From the NCBI GenBank assembly GCA_964016885.1, contig OZ024747.1, positions 84,444,001 to 84,508,000 on the forward strand: DNA of 64,000 bases, in the 5' to 3' direction. The stretch's first letter is position 1; the number at the start of each line of letters is the position of its first letter. This DNA is from Eledone cirrhosa (Eukaryota). Both the position numbers and the translations under genes were made by a program. The notes under the pieces were generated by a model. The model was given only the letters and a program-made list of their open reading frames with translations, searched no databases and was not told the DNA's origin. Shown here piece after piece: positions 1 through 60,699 of the stretch.

Positions 1-2584
<2,584 letters not shown>

Positions 2585-5500
2585 ATGATGTTCCCTGCTG
2601 TATTAGCGTTAAATTTTCCCTGCTGTATTAGCGATAAATTTTCGAGGGTTTCTCTTAGTAGCTTTTTCATGTCGTTAATATTATGATGTTCCCTGCTGTA
2701 TTAGCGTTAAATTTTCCCTGCTGTATTAGCGATAAATTTTCGAGGGTTTCTCTTAGTAGCTTTTTCATGTCGTTAATATTATGATGTTCCCTGCTGTATT
2801 AGCGTTAAATTTTCCCTGCTGTATTAGCGATAAATTTTCGAGGGTTTCTCTTAGTAGCTTTTTTCATGACGTTATTATTGTTAATTTTACTGATGTAGTA
2901 TTAACTTATTAACTTGGATATTTACCATGCGGTATTCTAATCCTATTGTATCTCTCTCAGTTATTTACCATGCGACCCTCAGTTCCTACCCCCCCCCCCC
3001 CCCCCCCCCTCTATGCACTTCTTTGAGGCTTACTACCCTGTCTTTAACCTAATTCATTCAATCTGAAAATATTGAAGAGATAAGACACTTTGCCATTCTT
3101 CTCTGCTAAAATGTACCACTAGAGCTGATTCAAATTTTCCCAGCCAGCCATCCACCTAATCTACGAAGGTATTTTAGCCTACATATTGTCGTTAATATTA
3201 TGATGTTCCCTGCTGTATTAGCGTTAAATTTTCCCTGCTGTATTAGCGATAAATTTTCGAGGGTTTCTCTTAGTAGCTTTTTCATGTCGTTAATATTATG
3301 ATGTTCCCTGCTGTATTAGCGTTAAATTTTCCCTGCTGTATTAGCGATAAATTTTCGAGGGTTTCTCTTAGTAGCTTTTTCATGTCGTTAATATTATGAT
3401 GTTCCCTGCTGTATTAGCGTTAAATTTTCCCTGCTGTATTAGCGATAAATTTTCGAGGGTTTCTCTTAGTAGCTTTTTCATGTCGTTAATATTATGATGT
3501 TCCCTGCTGTATTAGCGTTAAATTTTCCCTGCTGTATTAGCGATAAATTTTCGAGGGTTTCTCTTAGTAGCTTTTTCATGTCGTTAATATTATGATGTTC
3601 CCTGCTGTATTAGCGTTAAATTTTCCCTGCTGTATTAGCGATAAATTTTCGAGGGTTTCTCTTAGTAGCTTTTTTCATGACGTTATTATTGTTAATTTTA
3701 CTGATGTAGTATTAACTTATTAACTTGGATATTTACCATGCGGTATTCTAATCCTATTGTATCTCTCTCAGTTATTTACCATGCGACCCTCAGTTCCTAC
3801 CCCCCCCCCCCTCTATGCACTTCTTTGAGGCTTACTACCCTGTCTTTAACCTAATTCATTCAATCTGAAAATATTGAAGAGATAAGACACTTTGCCATTC
3901 TTCTCTGCTAAAATGTACCACTAGAGCTGATTCAAATTTTCCCAGCCAGCCATCCACCTAATCTACGAAGGTATTTTAGCCTACATATTGTCGTTAATAT
4001 TATGATGTTCCCTGCTGTATTAGCGTTAAATTTTCCCTGCTGTATTAGCGATAAATTTTCGAGGGTTTCTCTTAGTAGCTTTTTCATGTCGTTAATATTA
4101 TGATGTTCCCTGCTGTATTAGCGTTAAATTTTCCCTGCTGTATTAGCGATAAATTTTCGAGGGTTTCTCTTAGTAGCTTTTTCATGTCGTTAATATTATG
4201 ATGTTCCCTGCTGTATTAGCGTTAAATTTTCCCTGCTGTATTAGCGATAAATTTTCGAGGGTTTCTCTTAGTAGCTTTTTTCATGACGTTATTATTGTTA
4301 ATTTTACTGATGTAGTATTAACTTATTAACTTGGATATTTACCATGCGGTATTCTAATCCTATTGTATCTCTCTCAGTTATTTACCATGCGACCCTCAGT
4401 TCCTACCCCCCCCCCCCCTCTATGCACTTCTTTAAGGCTTACTACCCTGTCTTTAACCTAATTCATTCAATCTGAAAATATTGAAGAGATAAGACACTTT
4501 GCCATTCTTCTCTGCTAAAATGTACCACTAGAGCTGATTCAAATTTTCCCAGCCAGCCATCCACCTAATCTACGAAGGTATTTTAGCCTACATATTGTCG
4601 TTAATATTATGATGTTCCCTGCTGTATTAGCGTTAAATTTTCCCTGCTGTATTAGCGATAAATTTTCGAGGGTTTCTCTTAGTAGCTTTTTCATGTCGTT
4701 AATATTATGATGTTCCCTGCTGTATTAGCGTTAAATTTTCCCTGCTGTATTAGCGAATAAATTTTCGAGGGTTTCTCTTAGTAGCTTTTTCATGTCGTTA
4801 ATATTATGATGTTCCCTGCTGTATTAGCGTTAAATTTTCCCTGCTGTATTAGCGATAAATTTTCGAGGGTTTCTCTTAGTAGCTTTTTTCATGACGTTAT
4901 TATTGTTAATTTTACTGATGTAGTATTAACTTATTAACTTGGATATTTACCATGCGGTATTCTAATCCTATTGTATCTCTCTCAGTTATTTACCATGCGA
5001 CCCTCAGTTCCTACCCCCCCCCCCCCCTCTATGCACTTCTTTGAGGCTTACTACCCTGTCTTTAACCTAATTCATTCAATCTGAAAATATTGAAGAGATA
5101 AGACACTTTGCCATTCTTCTCTGCTAAAATGTACCACTAGAGCTGATTCAAATTTTCCCAGCCAGCCATCCACCTAATCTACGAAGGTATTTTAGCCTAC
5201 ATATTGTCGTTAATATTATGATGTTCCCTGCTGTATTAGCGTTAAATTTTCCCTGCTGTATTAGCGATAAATTTTCGAGGGTTTCCCTTAGTAGCTTTTT
5301 CATGTCGTTAATATTATGATGTTCCCTGCTGTATTAGCGTTAAATTTTCCCTGCTGTATTAGCGATAAATTTTCGAGGGTTTCTCTTAGTAGCTTTTTCA
5401 TGTCGTTAATATTATGATGTTCCCTGCTGTATTAGCGTTAAATTTTCCCTGCTGTATTAGCGATAAATTTTCGAGGGTTTCTCTTAGTAGCTTTTTTCAT

Positions 5501-7905
5501 GACGTTATTATTGTTAATTTTACTGAATGTAGTATTAACTTATTAACTTGGATATTTACCATGCGGTATTCTAATCCTATTGTATCTCTCTCAGTTATTT
5601 ACCATGCGACCCTCAGTTCCTACCCCCCCCCCCCTCTATGCACTTCTTTGAGGCTTACTACCCTGTCTTTAACCTAATTCATTCAATCTGAAAATATTGA
5701 AGAGATAAGACACTTTGCCATTCTTCTCTGCTAAAATGTACCACTAGAGCTGAATCAAATTTTCCCAGCCAGCCATCCACCTAATCTACGAAGGTATTTT
5801 AGCCTACATATTGTCGTTAATATTATGATGTTCCCTGCTGTATTAGCGTTAAATTTTCCCTGCTGTATTAGCGATAAATTTTCGAGGGTTTCTCTTAGTA
5901 GCTTTTTCATGTCGTTAATATTATGATGTTCCCTGCTGTATTAGCGTTAAATTTTCCCTGCTGTATTAGCGATAAATTTTCGAGGGTTTCTCTTAGTAGC
6001 TTTTTCATGTCGTTAATATTATGATGTTCCCTGCTGTATTAGCGTTAAATTTTCCCTGCTGTATTAGCGATAAATTTTCGAGGGTTTCTCTTAGTAGCTT
6101 TTTCATGTCGTTAATATTATGATGTTCCCTGCTGTATTAGCGTTAAATTTTCCCTGCTGTATTAGCGATAAATTTTCGAGGGTTTCTCTTAGTAGCTTTT
6201 TCATGTCGTTAATATTATGATGTTCCCTGCTGTATTAGCGTTAAATTTTCCCTGCTGTATTAGCGATAAATTTTCGAGGGTTTCTCTTAGTAGCTTTTTT
6301 CATGACGTTATTATTGTTAATTTTACTGATGTAGTATTAACTTATTAACTTGGATATTTACCATGCGGTATTCTAATCCTATTGTATCTCTCTCAGTTAT
6401 TTACCATGCGACCCTCAGTTCCTACCCCCCCCCCCCCCTCTATGCACTTCTTTAAGGCTTACTACCCTGTCTTTAACCTAATTCATTCAATCTGAAAATA
6501 TTGAAGAGATAAGACACTTTGCCATTCTTCTCTGCTAAAATGTACCACTAGAGCTGATTCAAATTTTCCCAGCCAGCCATCCACCTAATCTACGAAGGTA
6601 TTTTAGCCTACATATTGTCGTTAATATTATGATGTTCCCTGCTGTATTAGCGTTAAATTTTCCCTGCTGTATTAGCGATAAATTTTCGAGGGTTTCTCTT
6701 AGTAGCTTTTTCATGTCGTTAATATTATGATGTTCCCTGCTGTATTAGCGTTAAATTTTCCCTGCTGTATTAGCGATAAATTTTCGAGGGTTTCTCTTAG
6801 TAGCTTTTTCATGTCGTTAATATTATGATGTTCCCTGCTGTATTAGCGTTAAATTTTCCCTGCTGTATTAGCGATAAATTTTCGAGGGTTTCTCTTAGTA
6901 GCTTTTTTCATGACGTTATTATTGTTAATTTTACTGATGTAGTATTAACTTGGATATTTACCATGCGACCCTCAGTTTCCCTGCTGTATTAGCGATAAAT
7001 TTTCGAGGGTTTCTCTTAGTAGCTTTTTCATGTCGTTAATATTATGATGTTCCCTGCTGTATTAGCGTTAAATTTTCCCTGCTGTATTAGCGATAAATTT
7101 TCGAGGGTTTCTCTTAGTAGCTTTTTCATGTCGTTAATATTATGATGTTCCCTGCTGTATTAGCGTTAAATTTTCCCTGCTGTATTAGCGATAAATTTTC
7201 GAGGGTTTCTCTTAGTAGCTTTTTTCATGACGTTATTATTGTTAATTTTACTGATGTAGTATTAACTTATTAACTTGGATATTTACCATGCGGTATTCTA
7301 ATCCTATTGTATCTCTCTCAGTTATTTACCATGCGACCCTCAGTTCCTACCCCCCCCCCCTCTATGCACTTCTTTAAGGCTTACTACCCTGTCTTTAACC
7401 TAATTCATTCAATCTGAAAATATTGAAGAGATAAGACACTTTGCCATTCTTCTCTGCTAAAATGTACCACTAGAGCTGATTCAAATTTTCCCAGCCAGCC
7501 ATCCACCTAATCTACGAAGGTATTTTAGCCTACATATTGTCGTTAATATTATGATGTTCCCTGCTGTATTAGCGTTAAATTTTCCCTGCTGTATTAGCGA
7601 TAAATTTTCGAGGGTTTCTCTTAGTAGCTTTTTCATGTCGTTAATATTATGATGTTCCCTGCTGTATTAGCGTTAAATTTTCCCTGCTGTATTAGCGATA
7701 AATTTTCGAGGGTTTCTCTTAGTAGCTTTTTCATGTCGTTAATATTATGATGTTCCCTGCTGTATTAGCGTTAAATTTTCCCTGCTGTATTAGCGATAAA
7801 TTTTCGAGGGTTTCTCTTAGTAGCTTTTTTCATGACGTTATTATTGTTAATTTTACTGATGTAGTATTAACTTGGATATTTACCATGCGACCCTCAGTTC
7901 CTACC
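2585..7905 (+). repeat. Higher-order tandem array: about 30 copies of a 98-bp monomer in runs of 3 or 5, separated by a ~320-bp poly-C-containing spacer
   Basis: Monomer ATGATGTTCCCTGCTGTATTAGCG... starts at 2585, 2683, 2781; further runs start at 3200, 4002, 4609, 5218, 5825, 6629, 7551. There are seven long spacers and two shortened ones (~6910-6975, ~7830-7905). Copies are near-identical. Confidence 0.96.
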
Positions 7906-8148
7906 TCACAATTTCCCTCCCCCCCACCCCCACACACCACCATAGTCTATTCGACCAATCAAACCTAGCATGCCATTTCCACTGCTGCTGCTGCTACTAC
8001 CTGCCTAACTAACTCTCTCCTCCTCTGGCGCATCCCAACACACCCTGCCATTACCCCACCACCATTGTCCTTCTAGCCCTCAATTTTCCCACCGTTAGGG
8101 ATGGATGAGCTGGGAATACACGAGCAACTCTGAATCAATAGATGAAAT

Positions 8149-11100
8149 ATGAATCTGCGAGCTACCAAGCACCCACGTGAAGCGCCAACCCAGAGACCCT
8201 CCCCTACGAGTGTCGACAAATGCCCAAAACTCCGAGTTGGTACCATCAATGTAGGCTCAATGAAAGGAAGAGCAGGAGAAATCGTAGAAATGCTAGAGCG
8301 AAAGGAAGTTGATGTATGCTGTGTGCAAGAGACTAGATGGAGAGGAGGGTCTGCTAGAGTCCTTGTAGGAAAAAGCCAGTGCTACAAATTTTTCTGGGTA
8401 GGAAATGACGATGGGATGGGTGGTGTAGGTATACTATTAGCTGACAAGTGGGTAGATAAAGTAATCTCAGTGTACAGGGTAAATGCAAGAATCATTAAAC
8501 TCAGACTAGTCCTGAATAAGACAATTACCACAATAATATCAGCTTACGCACCCCAATCGGGGCTGCCAGACGAACTTAAGGATAGGTTTTACGAGTCCCT
8601 AATACACACTACTGCTCTAACAGACGACAAGGACTTCCTAATCATTGCAGGAGATTTTAACGGACACGTAGGTAAACACTGCGACGGCTTCAATAGAGTA
8701 CATGGAGGCCATGGAGTTGGCACAAGGAATGAGGAAGGATTCAGACTTCTAGAATTCTGCGACGCCAATGACATGTCGATATGTAACACAAACTTTAAAA
8801 AACCCGACAACCACCTGATCACCTATAGATCAGGGGAGCACTCTAGTCAGTTAGATTTTATCCTCATCAGAGGACGTGACAGATGGACGGTCGTAAACAC
8901 AAAAGCCTTCCCTAGTGAGGAATGTACATCCCAACATAGCTTAGTTGTCAGCGACCTCACGGTCAGAACTAGACGAGCCCTGAAACAGAGGCCAACCTGG
9001 AGAAGAAAGATCTGGAAGCTGAAAGTCCCCTCAACCAGTAACAGATTTAAAGATATTTTACTCAACGCCTACGACAGTAAAGAAGAACAGATAGAGACAT
9101 TTAACGTAGAAGAGAACTGGGAGTTCCTAAAAAATAACTTACTAGAGGCGACGGATGAGGTTTGTGGCTGGAGTAAGACCTCAAGCAGGAGGAGAGTGAC
9201 TTGGTGGTGGAACAATAAGGTAGATGAAGCAGTCAAGGCCAAGAGACAGGCATGGAAAGAATGGAAGAACGGGGGGAGCAGGGTACATTACATAGAGACC
9301 AAGAGGGAAGCTAGGCGACAAGTATACTTAGCTAGGAGGGAAGCAGAGGATAGAAAATTCAAGCATGTTTTACAACGTGAGGACCAGAAACAGGAGGTAT
9401 TCAAGATTGCGAGGCAGTGTGTCAGAGATAGTTGTGATGTCATTGGAGAGAAGTGTATCCGGAATGATAAAGGTGAGCTTGCCCTCACAAGTGCTGAGAA
9501 GAAAGATGCATGGAAGAGTCATTATGATAGATTACTAAATGAGGAGAATGCATGGGAAGAAGAGACCCTACCCCACGTAGACCCTATAGAGGGACCAGCA
9601 GTACAAGTCAGCGGCAGCGTAGTAAGTAAGGCAATCAGAGATATGAAGATAGGGAAGGCAACCGGTCCATCGGGTATAGCTGCCGAGATGCTGAAGGCAT
9701 CTGGGTCTGTAGGTCACACTATAACCACACGTATCATTAACCAGGTAATACTAGAGGGGGCCATACCAAAAGATTGGTGCAGTAGCATCATTGTCAACTG
9801 CTACAAAGGTAAAGGCGATGCACTAGATAGAGGAAACTATAGAGGTATAAAGTTGATGGACCAGGTCATGAAAGTAACAGAAAGAGTTATAGCACAGCTG
9901 ATTAGGGACCGGGTGAATATAGACGAGATGCAATTTGGGTTTGTTCCAGGGAAAGGCACCACTGATGCGCTCTTCCTTGTGAGGCAATTACAGGAAAAGT
10001 ACCTAGCTAAAAGTAAGCCACTCTACTTGGCATTTGTCGACCTTGAGAAAGCCTTTGACAGAGTTCCACGTGCAGTAATCTGGTGGGCTCTTAGAAAACT
10101 AGGAGTAGATGAATGGCTTGTGAAAGCGGTACAAGCCATGTATAGGGGAGCAGTCAGCAAAGTTAGGATTGGCAATGAGTATAGCGAGGAATTTAGCGTA
10201 CAGGTTGGGGTCCACCAGGGCTCTGTTCTTAGCCCTCTCCTGTTCATCATAGTCCTGCAGGCAATAACGGAGGAGTTTAAGACCGGATGCCCATGGGAAC
10301 TCCTGTATGCTGATGACCTCGCACTCATAGCTGAATCTATGGTAGAACTAGAGAATAAATTCCAAACCTGGAAGCAGGGACTAGAGAGAAAGGGCCTCAA
10401 AGTCAACATGACAAAGACTAAGGTCCTTATAAGTAGACGAGAAAACAGAACCCAGATCCCCTCAGGGAAATGGCCTTGCTCAGTATGTAGGAAAGGTGTA
10501 GGTAGGAACTCCATTCTTTGCCCCAAATGCAAACAATGGGTACACAAGAGATGTAGCGGGATCTCAGGAAGCTTAATTAAGAATGTAGGATTCACATGCA
10601 GCAGCTGTGCTGAAACAGCAAGCAAACAGCCACAGGAAACAAGTACCACCAATCTCTGGGAGGGCCCTGTAGAAACAGTAGACAGCTTCTGCTACCTAGG
10701 TGACCGAATTAGCAACGGAGGTGGGTGCTCAGAAAGTACAATAACTAGGGTAAGAACGGGATGGAAGAAGTTTAGGGAACTACTACCACTGCTAGCTGCA
10801 AAAGGCTTCTCCCTCAGAATGAAAGGCAGACTGTATGATGCGTGTATCCGAACAGCGATGTTGCATGGTAGTGAGACCTGGGCGCTGAAGGTGGAAGACT
10901 TACGTAGATTAGAGAGAAACGAAGCCTGCATGCTCCGATGGATGTGTAACAGTAATATACGTGAACGACAAAGCATAAATGAATTGAGAGAGAGACTGAG
11001 CATAAGAGGAATCAAATGCTGCGTGCAGGAGAGGCGGTTACGCTGGTATGGACATGTGATGCGTATGAAGGATGACAGCTGCATAAAAAGGTGCAGAGCA

Positions 11101-11268
11101 CTAGAAGTTGATGGAAACCGCGGAGTGGGGAGACCCAAGATGACTTGGGATGAGGTGATAAAAGCCGACCTTACCCAACTACACCTCTCAAAGTCAATGA
11201 CACACGACCGTGACTTCTGGCGTCACGCAGTAATACAGGGTACCCGACCTCCCATGGGTACATGCTGA
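8149..11268 (+). CDS. RTE-clade LINE ORF: APE endonuclease, reverse transcriptase and inserted PHD-type (C4HC3) finger; intact 1039 aa
   Basis: EN motifs NVGSM, VQETRW, GVGI, SAYAPQ, GDFNGHVG, LDFIL. RT motifs [35 protein letters not shown]-type C-terminus [11 protein letters not shown]...GRPKMTW. No stops or frameshifts. Confidence 0.96.
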   Translation: MNLRATKHPREAPTQRPSPTSVDKCPKLRVGTINVGSMKGRAGEIVEMLERKEVDVCCVQETRWRGGSARVLVGKSQCYKFFWVGNDDGMGGVGILLADKWVDKVISVYRVNARIIKLRLVLNKTITTIISAYAPQSGLPDELKDRFYESLIHTTALTDDKDFLIIAGDFNGHVGKHCDGFNRVHGGHGVGTRNEEGFRLLEFCDANDMSICNTNFKKPDNHLITYRSGEHSSQLDFILIRGRDRWTVVNTKAFPSEECTSQHSLVVSDLTVRTRRALKQRPTWRRKIWKLKVPSTSNRFKDILLNAYDSKEEQIETFNVEENWEFLKNNLLEATDEVCGWSKTSSRRRVTWWWNNKVDEAVKAKRQAWKEWKNGGSRVHYIETKREARRQVYLARREAEDRKFKHVLQREDQKQEVFKIARQCVRDSCDVIGEKCIRNDKGELALTSAEKKDAWKSHYDRLLNEENAWEEETLPHVDPIEGPAVQVSGSVVSKAIRDMKIGKATGPSGIAAEMLKASGSVGHTITTRIINQVILEGAIPKDWCSSIIVNCYKGKGDALDRGNYRGIKLMDQVMKVTERVIAQLIRDRVNIDEMQFGFVPGKGTTDALFLVRQLQEKYLAKSKPLYLAFVDLEKAFDRVPRAVIWWALRKLGVDEWLVKAVQAMYRGAVSKVRIGNEYSEEFSVQVGVHQGSVLSPLLFIIVLQAITEEFKTGCPWELLYADDLALIAESMVELENKFQTWKQGLERKGLKVNMTKTKVLISRRENRTQIPSGKWPCSVCRKGVGRNSILCPKCKQWVHKRCSGISGSLIKNVGFTCSSCAETASKQPQETSTTNLWEGPVETVDSFCYLGDRISNGGGCSESTITRVRTGWKKFRELLPLLAAKGFSLRMKGRLYDACIRTAMLHGSETWALKVEDLRRLERNEACMLRWMCNSNIRERQSINELRERLSIRGIKCCVQERRLRWYGHVMRMKDDSCIKRCRALEVDGNRGVGRPKMTWDEVIKADLTQLHLSKSMTHDRDFWRHAVIQGTRPPMGTC

Positions 11269-11544
11269 AGCATATAAACAATATGCCCTCCCCCCCCCCC
11301 CCCCCCCCACCGCAAGGTGGTCGTGGAGGTGCCACGGCAAAAAAGCACCCAGCCCACACTGTAAAGTGGACGTGTAGGCGCCACGAAAAAGCACCCAGCA
11401 CTCACTGTAAATGAGGTTGGTGTTAGGAAGGGCATCCAGCTGTAGAAATCAAGCCAGATCAGTTCCTGTATGAGCAAGGCATGGTCAGCCGACCAGACAC
11501 TGCCCACAACAGGACAACCCGTCTAACCCATGCTGAGTTTATAC

Positions 11545-13787
<2,243 letters not shown>

Positions 13788-14086
13788 AACGGCATTCCTG
13801 TATTAACGACATCACAACTTTCTCCGCTTGGCCTGTTTCCCCCCCTTTTGGAACTTTCCCCCGTTGATGGGCGTGAGCCCGAAATATTGGGATTAAATCT
13901 CCACTACGGTAACCCTTCTACCTTTGTTTTGTTTTCATCTTTGTCTCTCTCAATTTTCACTTTCACCTGTTTTTCCTATCTATCTTTCACTTCCTACCTC
14001 GAGATTTCCCTCTGCATTGTTGTGGCTTTCTTAAATACGTATTTTACACATTTCACAATGCTTCAAGCAAACTTTAACACCCTCTT
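13788..14086 (+). mobile_element. Possible Penelope-like element terminal fragment
   Basis: Hammerhead-like TTGAT-GGGC-GTGA-GCCC-GAAA at 13864-13884 (non-canonical core); non-coding island inside (TA)n. Confidence 0.35.
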
Positions 14087-14149
14087 ATATATGTATATAT
14101 ATATATGTATATATATATGTATATGTATATATATATGTATATATGTATG

Positions 14150-14200
<51 letters not shown>

Positions 14201-14227
14201 GTATATATATATATGTATATATATATG

Positions 14228-14258
<31 letters not shown>

Positions 14259-14329
14259 GTATATATATATGTATATATACATATATATATGTATATATAT
14301 ATATATGTATATATATGTATATATATATG

Positions 14330-14408
<79 letters not shown>

Positions 14409-14505
14409 GTATATATATATGTATATATATATATATGTATATATATATGTATATATATATATATGTATATATATATGTATATATATATATATGTATATAT
14501 ATATG

Positions 14506-14554
<49 letters not shown>

Positions 14555-14558
14555 GTAT
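14087..14558. repeat. Interrupted (TA)n microsatellite
   Basis: Direct inspection. Confidence 0.97.
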
Positions 14559-14559
14559 A

Positions 14560-56825: not shown

Positions 56826-57929
56826 CTACTCTTCTTCCTGAATACATATATGTGTAGTTAAATGACCTTTTCGAGAGAATGATTTACCACAGCTATCACA
56901 GTTATATGGCTTCTCACCTGTATGGATGTGTTTGTGCTTCATCATGTGATCCTTTCGAGAGAATGATTTACCACAGATATCACAGCAATGTGGTTTCTCC
57001 CCTGTATGGATGCGTTTGTGTTCAGTTAAGTGATTACTTCGAGAGAATGCTTTCCCACAGATACCACAATGATATGGCTTTTCTCCTGTATGAACACGTC
57101 TGTGAGTAGTTAAAGAAATTCCATGAGAGAATGATTTACCACAAATATCACAATGATATGGCCTTTCTCCTGTATGAATGCGTTTGTGAGAAGTTAATTC
57201 ACAATTTTGGGAGAATGATTTACCACAAATATCACAGCGATATGGTTTCTCTCCTGTATGAATACGTTGATGAGTAGTTAAGTAATCCTTTCGAGAGAAT
57301 GATTTACCACAAATAACACAGCAATGTGGCTTCTCTCCTGTATGAATACGTTTGTGATTATTTAAGTGACTTGTTTGATTGAATAATTTACCACAGATAC
57401 GACAGTGGTATGGTACCTCTCCAGTATGAATACGTTTATGAGTGGTTAAATGGCTTGACTGAGAGAATAATTTACCACAGATTTGACAATGATATGGTTT
57501 CTCTCCTGTATGAATATATCTGTGGCTATTCAAGTGATTATTTCGAGCAAATATTTTACCACAAATATCACAGTTATACGATTTCTCTCCTGAATGAATA
57601 CGTTTGTGTTGAGTTAATGAATTTCCATGAGCAAATGTTTTACCACAGGTATCACAATTATATGGCTTCTCTCCTGTATGAATGCGTTTGTGTGTAGTTA
57701 AGGTAATTCCATGAGCAAATGATTTACCACAGATATCGCAATGATATGGCTTCTCTCCTGTATGAATGCGTTTATGTATATTCAAGGCACTTGCTTTAGA
57801 AAATGACTTTGTACAGATATCACAGTGAAATGATGCTTTTCCTTTCCCTTTCTTTATTTTGACAGGAAAATCAATTTTTATAGATTGTGTTTTACGTTTA
57901 ACTTTGTTCTTACAAAATTCATTTTCCAT
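56826..57929 (-). CDS. Tandem C2H2 zinc-finger protein (12 fingers, single coding exon, 367 aa)
   Basis: Twelve C-x2-C...H repeats with HTGEKPY-type linkers; the last finger ends HIC instead of H-x3-H. A likely 5' UTR splice acceptor lies at ~58241 on the minus strand. Confidence 0.95.
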
Positions 57930-60699
57930 AATTTTCTCTAAACATAATATACAGATGTTTTCTTTTAGTTTCTATATCTTATTCCTAACAAATATTTCTA
58001 CTGGTATATTTCTATCAATATCTGAAGATAGTGAAAACTTCTTTGTAATTTTAAGTTTAATTAGAATTCAAAATCATTTTATACACATTCTAAACAGTGA
58101 AAATGGGAAATATTTCACAGTAATTCTACCACTTATTTTATAAACAGAGTTATGTATCAGCTTCCTTTAGTTTTTATAAGATAAGTATTATTGATATATC
58201 TGCAGCAAAAGATTCTTTTATTCCAATGTCATCCAATACTCTGAAATGATAAAGAAACAATATTAGATATAAAGGATATTTAAAAAGTAGATACAGCAGT
58301 GGAAATTTCCATATTGATAAACTGTAGATAACCTCTATTCAAACATTTAAAAGTTTTCTTTTAATTTATTAAAGTTACATCATAGATTTGTTTTGTAAAA
58401 TCTATGTACTTACAGACTACAGCTACATCTTGAGATTGTGTAACGCTATATATCTGTTTAACTAAAGAGTAGTGGACAATAGCTGTCTTCTCTCTCCCAT
58501 ATTATTTGTCAGAAATGTTTAGTACATTTTTTGAAAAAATATATTCAATCCAATCATAATCTACGTGGTGTATTCAGTGGGGAAAATAAACCTATTTAAT
58601 TAAGAAATAAAAACACATAGCTATAACAAAGTCATGTAGGTATTAATTATTTTTCAATATATGAACCATTTTTCCCCGTATATTTTCTCACTACTTATAG
58701 AACGCACCATGGTACGTTGCTTAAACTGTTATCTGGAACTTTAAAGTTAGAGCGGGGAGGCCATTTTTTTTTTTTTTTTTTTTTTTTAAATCGTAATCTC
58801 CTACAATTGAAAATGTAGAAATATGAATAAAGTTTTGAATAACTAAAAGTTACGAAGGAAGGGGTGTGAATTTTTTATTTATAAAGAATTGTAATCTCCT
58901 CTGTTTGAAATATAATATAATATAAGGAGAAATATTTTCGAGAATATGGTAACTGTTGCAAATTGAGTAATGGGCAGCAGATTTTGTCGTTATTTAATTT
59001 TGCAGAATCTTAATTTTTTATGTATAAAACAAAAATCCGTCAAGATTGTCAGGAAAAACGGAGGCTTTTTCTGAAATCCATCCAAGGAAAATCAACGTGA
59101 ACAAGGTGAAATTATACAGTTGAGGGGTATATGGAATAAACATAAATAACGGGACTGAAAGAATTAGAATATATCTCCTGAAAACTAAGTTTGAGGTTAA
59201 ATCTTATTTTAGATCGTAAAACAAGTTACTGGATTCTGTATTAGCAGTTGCCAGAGCAGTATTAAATATTAATAAATATTAAGAAATAAGCACGTGGAAA
59301 CAGACATAAACGACAAACGAATATAAGCATCTATTCTCTTCATCAACCTCTAGGATATACATTCATACATATACTAAATTTTTTTTAAACACACACATAT
59401 ATATTACACATATGCTGCAACACTGACTTCGATTCTACTTAGTTTATCAACACGCTGCACCACTACAAACGCCTTAACTCCAGTAAGTTACTGTCACTTA
59501 TTTTGAGACCTAAAATAAGACTTAACCTGGTTTTGAATGAAGAGAGAATTAAATAATTTTAAGAAAACAGAATCTTGTTGGGAACAAGAATAGTAGAGAT
59601 GAAGTAGAAATGTAATTATAAAAAAAAGAGATATTCTATAAAAGAACTGTGTATAATATATAAATAATACGTACATAACAATGCAGTTTATATGAAATAA
59701 TAAGTAGATACAGAAGTTGTGAAAGTTGAAATTATGAGGACGCTAAGAAAAACATTCAACTATTTCTTACCATAACTCTTTTTTATTCGTCTGGTTAATG
59801 AACAATGTCTTGAATTAACAACAGGGGTTAATTGTTTATCATTAACGTAGTATAAATAAATGTAAAGAAAGAATTACCTCCAATGTATATATATATTTAA
59901 CGAAGTGCGGCTCACATGCCGCTACATACATTGATCACATGGGGAAAATTGACCTCTAATCACAAGAGAGTGTTATTTAGTTACTCTTAGTGATAATTGT
60001 TCTTTGCATACACATTTACAGTTCTTGAAATAAATACAAATATGTTTTGTTTTCGTTATTAAAAAGTTTCTCGTTGTTGTTTAACCTTGGTGTTGGGATT
60101 CCAGATTAAATTTGCTCCTAATTCCTGTAACTTGAAATTCAGATTACCGAGAAGTAAGATGAAAAAGATTTCAAGTAAAAAAAAAATACTTAAACGCTGA
60201 TTGAAAAATAGTTTACAAGGAACACATATTTAAAAAAAAAGAGAGAATTATTCCGTTCGGCTATAGACGCTGTGACCTTCACTTTTACCGCATCATACCG
60301 GTTGTGAGAGAAAGCAAAAGAGTCACTGACTGTGGCGTCCCAAATGAGACATCTACCTCTTATTCAGGGACAAGGGGTAAGGCCATCTAGTCTCTTACCA
60401 TAAACTCTGGAAAAACCAGCTGTCTGTAGAATTGAGGGGGTATTTACCCGAGCCAGGGCCCACTTAAATGTCTCTCAATTTCAGATGGCATAGAGGTAAT
60501 TTGAAATGGAAGGAAGTTTTTACACCTGATTAGGTTTGATACTAATCTAAATGATATTGGCAAATTTATAAGATATTTGCATCATAAAAAGCGAAGGGAC
60601 CTACCTTTGCGTCTCCACACATGTCCAGATGAATCTCCTTGCACAAATGTCCACCTGTTTCATTCACTCATTCACAGCAGTCATAAAAAATACGTCCGC

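Follow-up and report, generated by a model that had tools for sequence, protein, structure and literature searches.

We analysed a window of 64,000 nucleotides from Eledone cirrhosa (assembly GCA_964016885.1, contig OZ024747.1, positions 84,444,001 to 84,508,000 of the forward strand; positions below count from its first letter). It contains a tandem array at 2584-7893 that leads into the single open reading frame (ORF) of an RTE-like long interspersed nuclear element (LINE). The array is no local oddity: it forms the 5' end of an RTE-like LINE family that is very young. We propose, with reasonable confidence, that it is a variable 5' end made of ~410-bp units that are likely promoters, and that it is kept by a cycle of truncation and regrowth. 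Reverse transcription would cut the array shorter at each insertion, and duplication at the DNA level would lengthen it again at the new site.

The linkage of array and ORF was examined beyond the window. Genome counts were exact pattern matches across the 3.0-Gb assembly, and copies were parsed in a sample, mostly from contig C1, that takes in roughly one family member in five. Before counting, loci that were duplicated, nested or gapped were removed (10 from the set used for 5' ends, 9 from that used for private single-nucleotide polymorphisms (SNPs) and monomer runs). A 33-mer from the 98-bp monomer of the array had 4112 matches, the long spacer 1714, the array/leader junction 615, the leader 532, the middle of the ORF 2290 and its 3' part 6500. 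Among the matches listed for C1:0-61.5 Mb, 17 of 17 monomer loci continued into one and the same leader and ORF, with 99-100% identity. When 122 ORF starts were parsed, 106 extended into the array and 16 ended no more than 275 nt from the ORF. The expectation that the monomer precedes this RTE family was thus borne out at the loci checked. Full-length ORFs were open in 79 of 115 copies and their median identity was 99.7%, in keeping with the very recent amplification that had been suggested from the near-identity of the repeats.

A satellite lying beside the LINE by chance, or an assembly artefact, is highly improbable. Both flanks of the copy in the window are long (TA)n tracts, and no single record spanning the locus was found among the public short-read contigs checked, as either account would allow. 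Against them, the monomer-to-monomer join occurred in short-read contigs of four public runs from three studies; the spacer-to-monomer join was also found in the contigs of one run, which may derive from the assembly's own sample. The structure is therefore real. Low-depth matches in two further runs (X6 and X7), labelled as other organisms, were not counted as a sign that relatives have the array. A free-standing satellite was refuted for the family by the 17 attached loci and by the giant arrays described below, all of which, where examined, end in leader and ORF.

Architecture of the copy and history of its unit

The features of the copy in the window are as follows.

2280..2583 (as a repeat tract, 2280-2586), no strand: (TA)n tract, upstream flank
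2584..7893, + strand: two-tier 5' tandem array, 98-bp runs within ~410-bp monomer-plus-spacer units
2584..2681, + strand: first 98-bp monomer, the 5' end of the copy, fused to the (TA)n tract
3025..5650, + strand: A>G variant in four of seven long spacers, at 3025, 3827, 5043 and 5650; one other exact genome match
6909..6976, + strand: short spacer of the terminal type lying inside the array, with a TT-microhomology join to monomer position 33 (6975/6976)
7831..7893, + strand: terminal short spacer, the array/leader junction; 615 exact genome matches
7894..8148, + strand: non-repeated leader ('tether'), 255 nt
8149..11268, + strand: single open ORF, 1039 aa, with apurinic/apyrimidinic (AP) endonuclease, reverse transcriptase (RT) and a PHD-type finger
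11269..11534, + strand: 3' untranslated region (UTR) without the family's last 26 nt and (TGA)n tail
11540..14559, no strand: (TA)n tract, downstream flank

Thirty full monomer starts and one partial were counted across the array. Each monomer carries an 18-bp internal duplication at +8 and +33, and of those with another monomer directly 3', 19 of 21 were letter-identical. The runs are, in order, 3, 5, 3, 3, 3, 5 and 3 monomers, then a shortened spacer, 2.7 monomers, and 3. The seven long spacers (310-321 bp) differ chiefly in poly-C length (C11-C21), and otherwise by one A/G site and two single changes. Run order and lengths agree with the original prediction, as does the position of the block between two (TA)n tracts. 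The terminal short spacer has 8-bp and 44-bp deletions and passes unbroken into the leader, as had been stated; the leader measures 255 nt up to the ATG at 8149. The unit has 37% GC and 8 CpG in 410 bp, with no CpG island.

When copies of different age were compared, three forms of the unit were seen. An older subfamily, with ORF identity of 96-97%, has a unit of ~285-300 bp that lacks the 98-bp monomer and is present once or twice. Middle haplotypes have units of ~400-410 bp with one monomer each. Runs of monomers were confined to copies with one ORF SNP (37 of 37 loci, against none of 28 loci of other haplotypes with a full unit), and this haplotype has the fewest private SNPs (median 1 against 4.5), making it the youngest group. 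Therefore, the higher-order structure is recent and a single innovation. The basic unit is the ~410-bp monomer plus spacer, and the 98-bp runs are a recent second tier.

Copies of this one haplotype vary widely in their runs (2,2,2; 4,4,4; 8,5,19) and are regular inside each copy. The run adjoining the leader was longer than the inner mean in nine of 21 loci and shorter in one. In four copies (L081, L085, L086 and L071) length variants of the monomer or unit (95, 123 and ~436 bp) extend throughout the whole array; L081 and L085 share the same variant and look like sisters.

The copy in the window had been described as intact. This is true of its ORF but not of its 3' end, which matches 262 of the 288 nt that close the family sequence and carries no (TGA)n tail; the full 3' end was present in 114 of 122 parsed copies. 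Since the family terminus is missing, and RTE-type LINEs are believed to depend on a 3' end of their own (so the relevant passages of PMC3747384), this copy is likely a dead end. No target-site duplication was readable at it, no other long ORF lies between the array and the 1039-aa ORF, and no Rfam family was found at 2500-11700. The predicted fold of the 3' end was weak.

Growth of arrays in place

The A>G variant of the copy in the window, carried by four of its seven long spacers, occurred in no other unit among 226 sampled. Its one other match in the genome is an unrelated unit in a giant array on contig C1718, and a search for a sister copy by this private SNP returned only that. An SNP private within the sample and present in at least two units was found at 11 of 45 multi-unit loci.

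Three copies have giant arrays that are still joined to leader, ORF and tail. The one at C11:3140300-3186100 (L195-L200, minus strand) spans ~42 kb with 153 units of 236-286 bp and shows higher-order periodicity; it belongs to the older subfamily and its ORF is broken, with leader and tail attached. That at C1718:16200-62900 (L209-L214) has 43 kb of ~410-bp units with 104 monomer starts and an open ORF, and splits a single short repeat with a 4-bp duplication. A separate copy (L099) occupies the equivalent position in this repeat family. The third (L127, with L227 and L230; C1:422.76-422.79 Mb) exceeds 26 kb and intermingles units of 357 and 405 bp, the 5' end of its array not being reached.

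Loss of the 5' end was estimated from 112 copies at ~0.6 per kb in the array, compared with 0.7-1.0 per kb in the ORF. At the observed truncation rate, each giant length has a probability below 2e-7 and lies beyond one pass of RT.

These figures bear on another explanation, in which the array is extended at insertion when RT, having reached the 5' end of the RNA, switches to a homologous unit of that molecule or of another RNA, a scheme related to the 'second-strand priming' model of mouse L1. We consider it unlikely. It would account for very different architectures under one ORF haplotype. It would also fit the terminal-type spacers found inside the array at five loci, including 6909-6976 here, whose joins fall no more than ~13 nt from the array/leader border with short microhomologies. 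These joins lie at the limit of homology between terminal and inner units, as would also be expected of DNA recombination. Either recombination or a template jump may have produced them, and jumps stay a candidate for single junctions such as 6975/6976. Arrays of 26-43 kb, on the other hand, are unreachable at a loss of 0.6 per kb, and jumps give no account of the higher-order periodicity among the diverged units on C11. Copying of RNA cannot repeat an SNP that no other locus has, unless its source is missing from the assembly. The original prediction had offered, as one alternative, a record of repeated RT jumps that is giving rise to a satellite. Satellites do arise, as the 26-43-kb arrays demonstrate; repeated jumps are unnecessary for this, and fail to explain either those arrays or private SNPs that recur inside a single array.

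A steady lengthening with age was rejected, array length against ORF age giving rho -0.17 (p 0.07); absence of growth with age is also what extension at insertion would give.

Monomer matches were unequal between strands (2451 forward, 1661 reverse), compared with 281 and 334 for the junction. This imbalance hints at more giant arrays of the youngest subfamily.

The predicted start site

The Inr-DPE consensus, combining an initiator (Inr) and a downstream promoter element (DPE), is TCAKTY with RGWYV at +28..+32. A match to it was found in the spacer of the ~410-bp unit, as follows.

3856..3889, + strand: initiator-like TCATTC, its A at 3858 taken as +1, and DPE-like AGACA at +28..+32; sequence match, predicted start
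3056, 3858, 4465, 5074, 5681, 6485 and 7407, + strand: predicted +1 in the seven long spacers, with the motif pair in all

A similar form of the consensus is given for Drosophila LINEs, which use this promoter type, in the relevant part of PMC1636488. The motif pair was present in 222 of 226 units, compared with 0.9% of shuffled units. In the older subfamily (ORF 96%), TCA and AGACA are conserved with unchanged spacing. When older and young units were aligned, identity was ~80% over +1..+120 and 50% just upstream, with no gaps across +1..+32.

A common 5' terminus was looked for among the 112 copies and was not found. The 5' ends were nevertheless enriched at unit positions 265-297 (15 of 93 against 5.5 expected, 2.7-fold; scan p 0.012-0.027), the enriched ends beginning at the predicted +1 A, unit position 268. 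TA-flanked ends were then counted genome-wide, leaving out loci of the older subfamily (five), an unrelated locus and a locus present in both listings. Among the matches listed, 29 loci ended in this region compared with 16 and 20 in two control regions (~1.7-fold, p ~0.03-0.04); without the discovery loci the figures were 25 compared with 14 and 15 (p ~0.03). For the older subfamily, 5' ends at 0..+14 were seen at 4 of about 18 loci. Single-unit older copies start at or just after +1, a biased observation because the copies were chosen by their ends.

From these sequence features, each ~410-bp unit is a likely internal promoter with its predicted start in the spacer and not in the 98-bp monomer. 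The Inr/DPE-like pair would mark the start of transcription, and any copy retaining one +1 site would stay expressible. The 98-bp runs, being downstream of this start, may tune expression or be neutral. A monomer-type promoter array had been put forward in the original prediction; the array is probably of that kind, with the amendment that the promoter-like unit is the ~410-bp monomer plus spacer.

The same data can be read as a neutral, unstable minisatellite that hitch-hikes in the 5' UTR, with transcription starting at host promoters further upstream or in the leader, and in which the Inr/DPE-like pair is due to chance. Its flat loss rate over the array, its scattered 5' ends, and its low GC content without a CpG island would all suit such a minisatellite. 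The enrichment of ends that starts at the motif in three samples argues against it, and so does the finding that no part of the unit is better conserved between subfamilies than +1..+120; the starts of the single-unit older copies point the same way, within the bias of their choice. We judge this account improbable.

Several points weigh against a promoter array maintained by truncation and regrowth. The Inr/DPE consensus is that of Drosophila and may not hold in this animal, and RNA evidence was limited to one fish-gut metatranscriptome, in which a single contig of 174 nt was found that could be DNA. The enrichment of ends is modest (an excess of ~10 in 93, over 30 nt) and post hoc, and microhomology with TA targets may contribute to it because the enriched region is AT-rich. 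The loss rate is no higher in the array than in the ORF, and most copies do not end at the unit start. Privacy of the SNP was checked genome-wide for the copy in the window only, and the other 10 loci with repeated private SNPs may have unsampled sisters. Finally, as array length does not rise with ORF age, regrowth would be sporadic and not steady.

A bolder version would see here an RTE lineage with a self-renewing two-tier promoter array. Expansion at the DNA level would give back the start sites that truncated insertions lose, the single gain of the 98-bp runs would have increased output and fuelled the latest burst, and the same instability would make the family a steady satellite factory wired to intact LINEs. 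This is conceivable but doubtful. As for giant arrays acting as super-sources, the 43-kb copy has four ORF SNPs that were found in none of 115 sampled copies.

Known systems and neighbouring sequence

Assignment of the family to RTE is provisional, resting on anatomy and not on a tree with named references. It has a single ORF with AP endonuclease and RT and no ORF1, and a simple-repeat tail, not poly(A); copies terminate in (TGA)2-9. The homologues found bore no element names, and the relatives in PDB were only L1 and R2. Lepidopteran RTEs (PMC2887409) and the octopus element RTE-2_OV (PMC9115989) are described in the available sections as single-ORF elements that encode AP endonuclease and RT and carry simple-repeat tails, (TGA)n among them, with many of their copies truncated at the 5' end; a zinc finger is further present in RTE-2_OV. 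Their 5' UTRs are given there as 276 to ~600 nt, and those sections mention no tandem array. Recently active RTEs have been counted in Octopus vulgaris, the element ends not being described in the portion concerned (PMC13282606). A literature search, conducted outside repeat libraries, supplements and most subscription papers and partly on abridged texts, gave no description of tandem 5' arrays in RTE elements.

The closest likeness is to the L1 elements of mouse (L1Md A, Gf and Tf) and rat, for which the consulted portions of PMC6454616 and PMC5381506 report a variable tandem 5' array, a ~250-bp non-repeated tether to the ORF, a truncated 5'-most unit, ends enriched at one site and a distinct terminal unit. 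Very long arrays are rare there as well, 50 monomers being reported in mouse. The same portions set insertion-time expansion of the mouse array against unequal crossover. The present family differs from L1Md in being single-ORF and RTE-like, in its (TGA)n tail, in AT-rich units without a CpG island, in having two tiers (98 bp inside 410 bp), and in a predicted Inr/DPE-like pair in place of a YY1 signal. Its arrays have a median 5' length of ~1 kb and a tail to 43 kb, compared with a mean of ~3 monomers quoted for mouse. By this comparison the array probably resembles mouse L1 monomer promoters through convergence, as an analogue and not a member. Compared with the internal promoters of the Drosophila elements jockey, Doc, F, G and I (PMC1636488), the motif pair agrees with the initiator at 7 of 8 positions and with the quoted consensus of the downstream element near +28/+29 at 6 of 8; each of these elements carries a single 5' promoter whose function was shown, whereas here an array is present and its function is predicted.

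Satellites can form from parts of retrotransposons, a repeat of the mobile element expanding in place with higher-order structure. Unlike such satellites in general, the 42-43-kb arrays here lie inside a single insertion with its tail, one of them with an open ORF. In the Dictyostelium element TRE5-A the A-module is repeated in tandem, and we know of no nested tier or giant arrays in it. As described in the relevant section of PMC3159450, this module is a 200-bp 5' module with promoter activity in an element lacking long terminal repeats, as here; TRE5-A differs in having two ORFs and in targeting tRNA genes.

How tandem 5' promoter arrays survive copying that is prone to truncation has been called unresolved in mouse L1, and the monomer array design a special feature of L1Md (both in passages of PMC6454616). 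The present family is probably an independent case of a tandem 5' array, in a single-ORF LINE with ~600 near-identical copies. Its three-step unit history is readable, and all stages from one unit to a 43-kb satellite occur in one genome. Both array regrowth and the birth of satellites from active retroelements are thereby made testable.

With respect to insertion sites, TA-rich sequence was present on at least one side of 57 of 93 copies and is the common target type. Short target duplications of at least 4 bp were found at 18 of 36 non-TA sites, compared with 20% in shuffled pairs (p 5e-5). The overlaps in the family are 3-7 bp, compared with the 6-12 bp reported for RTEs in the sections cited above. 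Locus L047 has 6.8 kb of array plus ORF inside an older RT coding sequence, and a 7-bp duplication marks the insertion. At C1:8-9 Mb, a region of 18-bp minisatellite harbours five copies (L035, L036, L037, L052 and L053).

Elsewhere in the window, a 5'-truncated LINE of another type (an RT fragment) at 1154-2279 on the minus strand abuts the upstream (TA)n tract. Nine older related RT fragments, of 69-78% identity, lie within 15971-62991, mostly beside (TA)n tracts. At 56826-57971, on the minus strand, an open frame has ~11 tandem C2H2 zinc fingers with an 84-bp period and is likely a host-gene exon.

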